Below are positions 11,301 to 14,300 of a DNA stretch of 64,000 bases, piece after piece. The stretch comes from Escherichia coli. Lineage in GTDB: Bacteria; Pseudomonadota; Gammaproteobacteria; Enterobacterales; Enterobacteriaceae. Position numbers: made by a program. Where the stretch lies: the NCBI RefSeq assembly GCF_003334405.1, contig NZ_QOWM01000005.1. One strand, 5' to 3'. Within the stretch, counting starts at the first letter, position 1, and every line of letters starts with the position of its first letter.

Positions 11301-14300
11301 ATGGCATGAGCAGTTGATCTCTCATTTCGCGGAGATCTTCTTCCCGTTGCTGCCCGCGTTGATTAGCGGCGGTTTGATCCTCGGTTTTCGCAATGTGATC
11401 GGCGATTTGCCCATGAGCAACGGTCAAACGCTGGCGCAAATGTACCCTTCCCTGCAAACGATCTACGATTTTCTGTGGTTGATCGGTGAAGCGATCTTCT
11501 TCTACCTGCCGGTCGGGATTTGCTGGTCAGCGGTGAAAAAAATGGGCGGCACGCCGATCCTCGGTATCGTGCTTGGCGTGACACTGGTTTCTCCACAGCT
11601 GATGAACGCTTATCTGCTCGGGCAGCAGCTGCCGGAAGTGTGGGACTTTGGCATGTTCAGCATCGCCAAAGTAGGCTATCAGGCGCAGGTGATCCCGGCA
11701 CTGTTAGCCGGACTGGCGCTGGGCGTTATTGAAACTCGCCTTAAACGCATCGTGCCGGATTACCTCTATCTGGTGGTGGTACCCGTCTGTTCGCTGATCC
11801 TCGCGGTGTTCCTCGCCCATGCGCTGATTGGTCCGTTTGGTCGCATGATTGGCGATGGCGTTGCCTTTGCGGTACGTCACCTGATGACCGGCAGCTTTGC
11901 TCCGATTGGTGCGGCATTGTTTGGCTTCCTGTACGCGCCGCTGGTGATCACCGGCGTACACCAGACCACCCTTGCTATTGATTTGCAGATGATTCAAAGC
12001 ATGGGTGGCACGCCAGTGTGGCCGCTGATTGCGCTGTCGAATATCGCTCAGGGCTCCGCCGTGATAGGCATTATCATTTCCAGCCGCAAGCACAATGAAC
12101 GCGAGATCTCCGTGCCTGCCGCTATCTCCGCCTGGCTTGGGGTCACTGAGCCTGCAATGTACGGCATCAACCTGAAATATCGCTTCCCGATGCTGTGCGC
12201 GATGATTGGTTCTGGTCTGGCAGGATTGCTATGCGGCCTGAACGGCGTTATGGCGAATGGCATCGGCGTAGGCGGCCTGCCGGGAATTCTCTCGATTCAA
12301 CCGAGCTACTGGCAGGTATTTGCGCTGGCAATGGCTATCGCCATCATCATCCCGATTGTACTCACCTCGTTTATCTATCAGCGGAAATACCGCCTGGGCA
12401 CGCTGGACATTGTTTAATTTTCTTCGGGGCGCAATTGCGCCCCCTCGCATTTGCAGGAATAACGTAATGACTAATCTTCCCCACTGGTGGCAAAACGGCG
12501 TTATCTACCAGATTTATCCAAAGAGTTTTCAGGACACCACGGGTAGCGGCACCGGCGATTTACGTGGCGTTATCCAACGCCTGGACTATCTGCATAAACT
12601 GGGCGTTGATGCCATCTGGCTAACCCCCTTTTATGTCTCTCCCCAGGTCGATAACGGTTACGATGTAGCGAACTATACGGCGATTGATCCCACCTACGGC
12701 ACGCTGGACGATTTTGACGAACTGGTGACGCAGGCAAAATCGCGCGGGATTCGTATCATTCTCGATATGGTGTTTAACCATACCTCTACCCAACATGCCT
12801 GGTTTCGCGAGGCGCTGAACAAAGAAAGCCCTTACCGCCAGTTTTATATCTGGCGCGATGGCGAACCAGAAACGCCACCGAACAACTGGCGTTCAAAATT
12901 TGGCGGTAGTGCGTGGCGCTGGCATGCGGAAAGCGAACAGTACTATTTGCATCTCTTTGCACCAGAACAGGCGGATCTCAACTGGGAGAATCCAGCGGTA
13001 CGCGCAGAGCTGAAAAAAGTCTGTGAATTCTGGGCCGATCGTGGGGTCGACGGGTTGCGCCTGGATGTGGTGAATCTGATCTCCAAAGACCCGCGTTTCC
13101 CTGAAGACCTGGATGGCGACGGGCGTCGCTTCTACACCGACGGGCCACGAGCACACGAGTTTTTGCACGAGATGAACCGCGATGTGTTTACGCCACGCGG
13201 GTTAATGACCGTAGGTGAAATGTCCTCCACCAGCCTTGAGCATTGCCAGCGATACGCGGCACTGACAGGCAGTGAATTGTCGATGACCTTTAATTTTCAT
13301 CACCTGAAGGTCGATTATCCCGGTGGTGAAAAATGGACGCTGGCTAAACCTGACTTTGTGGCGTTGAAAACATTGTTCCGCCACTGGCAACAAGGAATGC
13401 ACAACGTGGCATGGAATGCCTTGTTCTGGTGTAACCACGATCAGCCGCGCATTGTTTCTCGCTTTGGTGATGAAGGTGAATACCGCGTGCCTGCGGCAAA
13501 AATGCTGGCGATGGTGCTGCATGGCATGCAGGGAACGCCGTATATCTACCAGGGCGAAGAGATTGGCATGACCAACCCGCATTTCACGCGCATTACTGAC
13601 TATCGCGACGTGGAGAGCCTCAATATGTTTGCCGAGCTGCGCAACGATGGGCGTGATGCCGACGAGTTATTGGCAATCCTCGCCAGTAAATCCCGTGACA
13701 ACAGTCGCACGCCCATGCAATGGAGCAACGGCGATAATGCCGGGTTTACGGCTGGCGAACCGTGGATTGGCCTGGGCGATAACTATCAACAAATCAACGT
13801 AGAAGCCGCGCTGGCCGATGATTCCTCGGTGTTTTACACCTACCAAAAGTTAATCGCACTGCGTAAGCAGGAAGCCATCCTGACATGGGGCAATTACCAG
13901 GATCTGCTGCCAAACAGCCCTGTATTGTGGTGCTATCGCCGTGAATGGAAGGGGCAAACCTTGCTGGTCATTGCCAACCTTAGCCGTGAGATCCAACCCT
14001 GGCAGCCAGGGCAAATGCGCGGCAACTGGCAGCTTGTGATGCATAACTACGAAGAAGCCTCACCACAACCCTGTGCCATGAATTTACGGCCTTTTGAGGC
14101 TGTCTGGTGGTTACAGAAGTAAATCTTCCCTAAGCCCCGGTAATGCCGGTCATTCCGGGGTTTTGTCTGTCAGCATGTTGTTTTTGTTGATTTTTCAACC
14201 AGCAAATTCATTAAAAAATTTACATAACGCTGTAGCGCCCGTCATCCGTACGCTCTGCTTTTTACTTTGAGCTACATCAAAAAAAGTTCAAACATCCTTG

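Follow-up and report, generated by a model that had tools for sequence, protein, structure and literature searches.

In a 64,000-nt stretch of Escherichia coli DNA (contig NZ_QOWM01000005.1 of assembly GCF_003334405.1; hereafter the window), the 49-nt spacer between treB and treC, which encode the phosphotransferase system (PTS) trehalose EIIBC permease and trehalose-6-phosphate hydrolase, harbors a small G+C-rich hairpin that is strongly conserved among Enterobacteriaceae and lies immediately upstream of a published RNA 3' end of E. coli K-12. The treBC genes are annotated as a plain two-gene operon, but the data indicate two RNAs, treB and treB-treC, and they indicate the hairpin as the boundary between the two. 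We consider it rather probable, with modest confidence, that a monocistronic treB mRNA has its 3' end set and protected by the hairpin, after read-through by RNA polymerase and cleavage or trimming of the transcript. A leaky terminator at the same place is the main alternative.

The hairpin and its place in the operon

The window is from E. coli, and over 501 nt around the hairpin it shares 100% identity with strain 4/1-1 and about 98.8% with K-12 derivatives. The open reading frame (ORF) of treB (10996-12417, + strand, 473 aa) is supported by NCBIfam NF008236 (973.8 bits) and RefSeq, and that of treC (12467-14122, + strand, 551 aa) by its reading frame and NCBIfam NF008183 (1222 bits); both identities agree with the RefSeq annotation in 5,426 E. 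coli genomes. An initial annotation, made from the sequence by itself, had described a perfect 18-nt GC palindrome in the 49-nt gap between the two genes. The length of the gap holds (12418-12466, from the end of the treB ORF at 12417 to the treC ATG at 12467), and the palindrome GGGGCGCAATTGCGCCCC is present, once in the window, at 12426-12443, one position downstream of the 12425-12442 given for it.

The RNA fold of GGGGCGCAATTGCGCCCC is a 7-bp stem made entirely of G·C pairs with a 4-nt loop and a free energy of -15.0 kcal/mol, consisting of the 5' arm GGGGCGC (12426-12432), the loop AAUU (12433-12436) and the 3' arm GCGCCCC (12437-12443), all on the + strand. It is located 8 nt after the treB stop codon, from which it is separated by the pyrimidine-rich linker UUUUCUUC (12418-12425, + strand), and 24 nt before the treC AUG. 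The treC Shine-Dalgarno sequence AGGAA follows at 12455-12459 (+ strand), and its GGA core is invariant in our alignment. The lack of a T-run 3' of the palindrome was described correctly: the tail is CTCGCATTTGC, and a terminator scan gave no flag.

The perfect palindromy alone is the insignificant part of the observation, since chance would supply a mean of 0.32 perfect palindromes of at least 18 nt per 64-kb window, with 31% of windows simulated under a first-order Markov model containing at least one. It is real in this strain, but among relatives only the two 7-nt arms are conserved. The significance comes instead from the position in one 49-nt spacer, from the conservation across species and from the experimentally mapped RNA ends. 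The covariance models of Rfam 15 gave no match overlapping 12418-12466, even at E-values up to 10. Queries of 71 nt and 501 nt that span the palindrome have a median of one matching site in each E. coli genome, and membership in a REP/BIME-type repeat family is ruled out by this copy number and by the single occurrence in the window.

Published RNA ends at the hairpin

In the Term-seq data of Adams et al. (2021; PMC7815308, Supplementary file 1), MG1655 position 4464728(-) is classed as a 'primary' 3' end of treB, with 425,606 reads in lysogeny broth (LB) at an optical density (OD) of 0.4. Its end sequence, ...GCGCCCC-CUCGC-3', stops 5 nt after the stem, and its last base, a C, is equivalent to window position 12448 on the + strand (transferred via the K-12 locus L081). 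For the treC terminator end at 4463010, that sheet gives 64,109 reads on the same strand; treB has five additional internal 3' ends, and treC has none. These counts are to be compared within a strand only, as minus-strand counts in the file run about 30-fold above plus-strand counts (lowest listed about 23,469 versus about 785); the same-strand counts and the internal ends point to more treB RNA than treC RNA. The treB end is missing from the LB OD 2.0 and M63 sheets, and its occurrence in LB OD 0.4 only is in line with trehalose from yeast extract inducing treBC. Adams et al. (2021) list no Rho-termination region across 4464200-4464899, although absence from a list is weak evidence.

An independent view of the same site is provided by SMRT-Cappable-seq, which reads 5'-triphosphate transcripts from end to end (Yan et al., 2018; PMC6131387). 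A transcript spanning 4464727-4466210 covers b4240 (treB) only and another spanning 4463009-4466210 covers b4240|b4239, both from the same start site, 4466210(-) in K-12. The equivalent start in the window, 10966 (+ strand; 30 nt 5' of the treB ATG), was transferred from K-12 via identical sequence and the K-12 annotation. The 1-nt offset between the SMRT-Cappable-seq and Term-seq ends would be expected from A-tailing, as the next genomic base is an A. The same source gives the numbers 514 and 6108, which may stand for transcripts ending at the hairpin and passing it (about 8%), in columns that are unlabelled, so that this reading is unverified. The longer transcript ends at the operon-terminal intrinsic terminator, CCCCGG...CCGGGG followed by UUUUGU (14135-14166, + strand), where the K-12 ends are 4463010 by Term-seq and 4463009 by SMRT-Cappable-seq. 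The TERMITe supplements have no treB or treC entry, and a literature search on treB with small RNAs (sRNAs), Hfq or ProQ found nothing specific.

The initial annotation had suggested that the stem-loop modulates mRNA processing or the relative expression of permease and hydrolase. A role in forming or processing an mRNA 3' end is borne out insofar as a dominant K-12 3' end and a treB-only transcript map to the hairpin, be that end produced by cleavage and trimming or by leaky termination.

Conservation across Enterobacteriaceae

We examined 80 treC loci, one genome per species, all from Enterobacteriaceae and with TreC at least 79% identical. The treB-treC junction was extracted from 77 of the 80, which gives 78 spacers including that of the window. 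A hairpin of the type GGGGCGC-N(3-6)-GCGCCCC is found in 76 of these 78, usually with -13 to -17 kcal/mol, in Escherichia, Salmonella, Citrobacter, Klebsiella, Raoultella, Enterobacter, Kosakonia, Kluyvera, Buttiauxella and other genera. The distance from the treB stop codon to the hairpin is 5-15 nt in every hairpin-bearing spacer except that of one Citrobacter (L014, described below), and the linker between them is U/C-rich in nearly all relatives. Downstream, the Shine-Dalgarno GGA starts 11-15 nt after the stem (mode 12), and the stem-to-AUG distance is 19-25 nt in these relatives.

Mean pairwise identity is 0.85-1.0 at the 14 stem-arm positions, compared with mostly 0.4-0.7 at flanking spacer positions and 0.54-0.57 at 4-fold synonymous sites of the neighbouring 60 codons of treB and treC. 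The loop occurs in 24 variants of 3-6 nt, and the central AATT in only 5/76. Paired changes in the arms are observed in Citrobacter gillenii (GGGGUGC/GCACCCC), Buttiauxella noackiae (GGGGCCA/UGGCCCC), Buttiauxella sp. A111 (GGGGCCG/CGGCCCC) and the L079 genome, labelled 'Enterobacter pulveris' (GGGCGCGG/CCGCGCCC). In a MAFFT alignment double changes occur at a single pair and pairing holds in 97.4% of cells; formal covariation is thin because the stem is nearly invariant. RNAalifold predicts the hairpin as the sole structure. Judged from these alignments, the conserved element is a 7-bp G·C stem that is under clear purifying selection, and the initial proposal of a stable stem-loop inside the operon holds well. 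A structure in RNA (or in a single strand) is favored over a protein-binding DNA palindrome because the spacing of the arms varies and the arm changes are compensatory.

Two Buttiauxella species lack the GGGGCGC hairpin. The spacers of B. gaviniae (L077, 2337-2500) and B. brennerae (L078, 2383-2500) are 164 and 118 nt long and carry an ERIC/IRU-like element (...CAGGAGCTTACTAAAGTAAGTGACTGGGGTGAGCGAGC...). It is very similar in sequence to an ERIC copy of E. coli that the Term-seq table lists at K-12 127845. In these two species one structured element appears to have been swapped for another. In Citrobacter sp. Res13-Sevr-PEB04-36 (L014, 2417-2495) the treB stop codon comes about 10 codons early, and the usual C-terminal coding sequence (…ATTACAAATTGTCTGA) lies inside a 77-nt 'spacer'; the hairpin is kept, as GGGGTGC/GCACCCC.

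Beyond the family, a word-indexed protein search gave only close relatives, and a 50%-cluster library gave only full-length matches of at most 51% identity. Two distant treC homologues (48-49% identical) differ at the junction: one PTS-hydrolase operon (L085, 2440-2476) carries a canonical terminator, GCTCGCCT...AGGCGAGC followed by TTTTTT, and the other (L086, 1731-1734) has a 2-nt gap. An intercistronic hairpin between the transporter and hydrolase genes is thus recurrent and not universal.

Variation within E. coli

The region is carried by 5,424 of 5,426 complete E. coli genomes, and all but 14 of these match at 95% or more over 71 nt; at least 5,412/5,426 match the 71-nt region with at least 90% identity. 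The stem itself was read directly in only five E. coli alleles, of which that of strain SL124 lacks the 3' arm and the others differ outside the stem. SL124 (L082, NZ_CM194971.1, 91-160) carries a natural 16-nt deletion (GGGGCGCAA|TTGCAGG), equivalent to window positions 12435-12450, that removes half of the loop, the 3' arm and the sequence GC↓AUU discussed below, and leaves a 33-nt spacer with the Shine-Dalgarno sequence intact. The low-identity band to which SL124 belongs comprises 12/5,426 genomes, and strains with a deletion of the SL124 type are ready-made hairpin-minus mutants.

Another kind of rearrangement is found in the E. coli proteins P0086, P0089 and P0101 (one host being O145:NM) and in NZ_AP022298.1, where a 941-aa 'TreB' combines PTS EIIB/EIIC and alpha-amylase domains. 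These proteins are 100% identical to TreC over 86% of the TreC length, which implies a putative treB-treC fusion through a deletion across the spacer and the hairpin.

A probable protected 3' end of treB mRNA

In the reading that we favor, RNA polymerase would usually continue past the hairpin into treC, and the transcript would subsequently be cleaved in the unpaired RNA directly behind the hairpin. The cut would fall at G-C↓A-U-U (12447-12451, + strand), an exact site of RNase E type at a distance of 5 nt from the stem. In an alternative route, 3'-5' exonucleases would trim back RNA that had been broken or terminated at a point further downstream. The hairpin would block PNPase and RNase II, and the treB segment would persist as a stable monocistronic mRNA, while the treC segment would keep an unprotected 5'-monophosphate leader and decay more quickly. 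The outcome would be more permease message than hydrolase message from a single promoter. The data show directly that the hairpin exists and is conserved, where the 3' end lies and that there is a treB-only transcript; the nuclease steps and an effect on the TreB:TreC ratio we infer from them.

The class of protective 3' hairpins fits because there is no U-tract, because the 3' end lies precisely and closely behind the stem, and because no Rho signal is reported; such U-less hairpins with a Term-seq end directly behind them are established as protective in E. coli operons and in Rho-terminated transcripts. The mapped 3' end also falls, to the base, on the cut of a perfect RN↓WUU, the core motif of RNase E (Chao et al., 2017), with G at 12447 and C at 12448 before the cut and AUU after it. 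Among the 61 distinct tails of the relatives the motif occurs at +4/+5 after the stem in 33, and anywhere up to +12 in 36, where 13.4 would be expected from shuffles. In addition, treBC RNA is among the operon transcripts that are lowered by RNase E overproduction.

Several points weigh against this reading. Dar and Sorek (2018; PMC5927463) included treC-treB among the 390 operons that they analysed (their S2), and it is not among the 47 operons (S3) for which both stability and abundance differ 2-fold or more. Yan et al. (2018; PMC6131387) hold that ends selected through a 5'-triphosphate are mostly true termination sites and not products of RNase E. A look through published data turned up neither a 5'-monophosphate end matching the proposed cut nor results from nuclease mutants at this locus. 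The RN↓WUU match alone has a chance of about 1 in 64 per position, the motif counts in relatives measure conservation and are not independent tests, given their shared ancestry, and several relatives have a U-run after the same hairpin in place of the RNase E motif.

Alternative explanations

The strongest competitor, which we regard as a distinct though doubtful possibility, is a leaky intrinsic terminator (attenuator), in which the hairpin would release part of the polymerases just after treB despite a degenerate U-tract. A closely following ribosome, stopping 8 nt away, would block folding, and read-through into treC would depend on the coupling of transcription and translation. The energy and size of the hairpin are indeed terminator-like, and the site is labelled a termination site ('novelTTS') in data enriched for primary 5'-triphosphate transcripts (PMC6131387). 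Most relatives have UUC straight after the stem, runs of U5-U6 occur in Kosakonia, Trabulsiella, Klebsiella michiganensis and UBA3516, and a distant locus of treP/treA type has a canonical terminator at the same intercistronic position. Partial termination predicts different abundance with equal stability, and treBC would then be missing from the differential-decay list, as it is. Of the features of intrinsic terminators, a G+C-rich hairpin is present, but the stem should be followed at once by about 7-8 nt rich in U, a feature absent in E. coli and present in, for example, Kosakonia (UUCUUUUUU). The E. coli tail, CUCGCAUU(U/C), has one U in the first five positions and 4 U in the first 10, and was passed without a flag by the scan; a terminator d-score is positive in 15/78 spacers and -23.5 for E. 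coli. The mapped end lies 5 nt after the stem, at a C, rather than 7-9 nt into a U-tract; G and C would dominate the RNA:DNA hybrid there, and by the established mechanism this should disfavor intrinsic release; and it is the hairpin that is conserved, not the U-tract. The share of about 8% of transcripts ending at the hairpin, on the unverified reading of the SMRT-Cappable-seq columns, would speak against a terminator as well. The ribosome bears on both sides of the question. Terminator activity should be strongly damped because the ribosome stops 8 nt upstream, as in the precedent of terminator tR2, which is almost fully repressed at 8-9 nt from the stop codon; from the same precedent leaky, ribosome-gated behavior is what one would expect here, and such damping could be what the arrangement is for, as a ribosome-gated leak. 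The idea that the distance to the stop codon is traded off against the strength of the U-tract was examined among the relatives and rejected (Spearman rho -0.03). Processing and leaky termination are not mutually exclusive, and the occurrence of the same stem with an RNase E-like site in some lineages and a U-run in others suggests that the treB-only 3' end is the conserved output.

The remaining explanations are less probable still. That the hairpin is a non-adaptive by-product, the remnant of an old terminator that stalls exonucleases and leaves TreB and TreC levels unaffected, seems quite unlikely to us: such a relic would agree with treBC not being flagged as differentially decaying, with the rare E. 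coli strains that lack the 3' arm (SL124 and its 16-nt deletion) and with the missing hairpin in two Buttiauxella species, but the arms are much more conserved than the loop, flanks and synonymous sites, compensatory changes restore pairing, and the two Buttiauxella species carry an ERIC-like structured replacement rather than nothing. The figure of at least 5,412/5,426 genomes matching the 71-nt region at 90% or more also speaks against a relic, with the stem itself read in five alleles, one of which (SL124) has lost the 3' arm. Lower again stands a translational element, in which the hairpin and the CU-rich tract would mask or position the treC ribosome-binding site and couple treC to treB translation. 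The tight spacing (hairpin to GGA 11-15 nt, hairpin to AUG 19-25 nt) and the minimum-free-energy fold of the E. coli spacer, in which UUUCU pairs with AGGAA, are in its favor; RNAalifold finds the hairpin only, and the hairpin stops 24 nt short of the AUG without overlapping the Shine-Dalgarno sequence, and we give this idea little credence. An anti-Shine-Dalgarno role of the CU-rich linker was rejected, its mean pairing probability being 0.08 over 75 species versus 0.18 with shuffled tracts. A DNA-level site, that is, an operator or another palindrome bound by a dimeric protein, is the least credible of all. The inverted repeat is perfect in this strain, but its center is not conserved, its arms are spaced by 3-6 nt with no fixed half-site spacing, and its arm changes are compensatory, unlike those of fixed half-sites; moreover, it sits within the operon, with 1.46 kb between it and the promoter upstream, and it is unlike the LacI-type palindrome CGGGAACGTTCCCG upstream of treB.

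Comparison with known systems

Protective 3' hairpins without a U-tract are known from malE-malF and from 26 other gene pairs of E. coli (Dar and Sorek, 2018, PLoS Genet; PMC5927463). The treB hairpin resembles this class in being stable, in lying within a polycistronic mRNA right after the promoter-proximal gene, in lacking a U-tract (tail CUCGCAUUU), in having a Term-seq end immediately downstream with no Rho signal reported, and in being conserved in related enterobacteria. It differs from the malE-malF element, a REP element, in being an 18-nt hairpin of single copy, and, in lying in the spacer, from the 17/26 elements of that study that are inside the downstream ORF; treBC was, furthermore, analysed in that study and is missing from its table of decay-regulated operons.

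A second comparison is offered by the terminal stem-loops of Rho-dependent transcripts (Dar and Sorek, 2018, NAR; PMC6061677), with which the treB hairpin shares a terminator-like energy, the lack of both a U-tract and an upstream A-tract, and a precise steady-state 3' end just after the stem. The gain and loss of a U-run behind the same hairpin across relatives also fits the suggestion made there that a mere change in U content could turn a terminator from the Rho-dependent to the intrinsic type or back. Unlike those stem-loops, the treB hairpin is not at the end of a transcription unit and no Rho region is listed for it; a translated gene begins 24 nt downstream, which leaves little room for Rho loading. 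The leaky terminators prs-dauA and dapA-bamC (PMC6131387) are similar in their intercistronic termination call, their substantial read-through and their short and long transcripts from one promoter, but these are known Rho-independent terminators of the U-tract class, and the E. coli treB hairpin lacks a U-tract and has its 3' end 5 nt from the stem.

The treB hairpin is an unnamed, operon-internal, 3'-end-defining element on a continuum between protective hairpin and leaky terminator, a well-supported addition to a catalogue and not a new principle. The 3' end itself is already known, as it sits in two published supplementary tables. A prior description of the element, of its family-wide conservation or of a role in TreB:TreC stoichiometry was not found in a search that stopped short of the original papers of Klein et al. 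(1995) and Rimmele and Boos (1994).

Possible meaning for trehalose metabolism

Trehalose-6-phosphate is both the product of TreB and the inducer recognized by TreR. If it is true that the hairpin tunes the permease:hydrolase ratio, the level of this inducer would be tuned as well, and the site would offer a compact model, simple to mutate, of how one hairpin may be paired with an RNase E site in certain species and a U-tract in other species. It can be speculated that the hairpin, placed 5-15 nt behind the treB stop codon, acts as a conserved ribosome-gated switch, whose folding during transcription depends on how closely the treB ribosome trails the polymerase. The share of transcripts that reach, or stay whole through, treC, and with it the TreB:TreC ratio, would report the load of translation and membrane insertion. 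The ratio would then set the steady-state inducer level and close a feedback loop, and the same output would be reached by GC↓AUU or by a U-tract. We regard this reading, including its feedback loop, as improbable.

Other features of the window

Upstream of the operon lies treR, the trehalose repressor by NCBIfam (9930-10877, + strand). Between treR and treB, about 36 nt 5' of the treB start site, a perfect palindrome, CGGGAACGTTCCCG, at 10917-10930 is followed by TTTTT; it looks like a LacI-type (TreR) operator and/or a treR terminator. On the opposite strand, an Mg2+ riboswitch (Rfam RF01056, 125.8 bits; 9645-9760, - strand) is found in the leader of mgtA (6855-9551, - strand). Perfect G+C-rich hairpins with stems of at least 7 bp number about 11 in the window if each is counted once; with alternative loop definitions they make up 16 entries, versus 3.8 expected from simulations. 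Sites of this kind include 4731-4750, 6660-6683, 22599-22620, 28430-28449, 36839-36861, 44140-44164, 57206-57232 and 59337-59354, and at least one of them, 6660-6683, coincides with the mapped 3' end of ridA in K-12.

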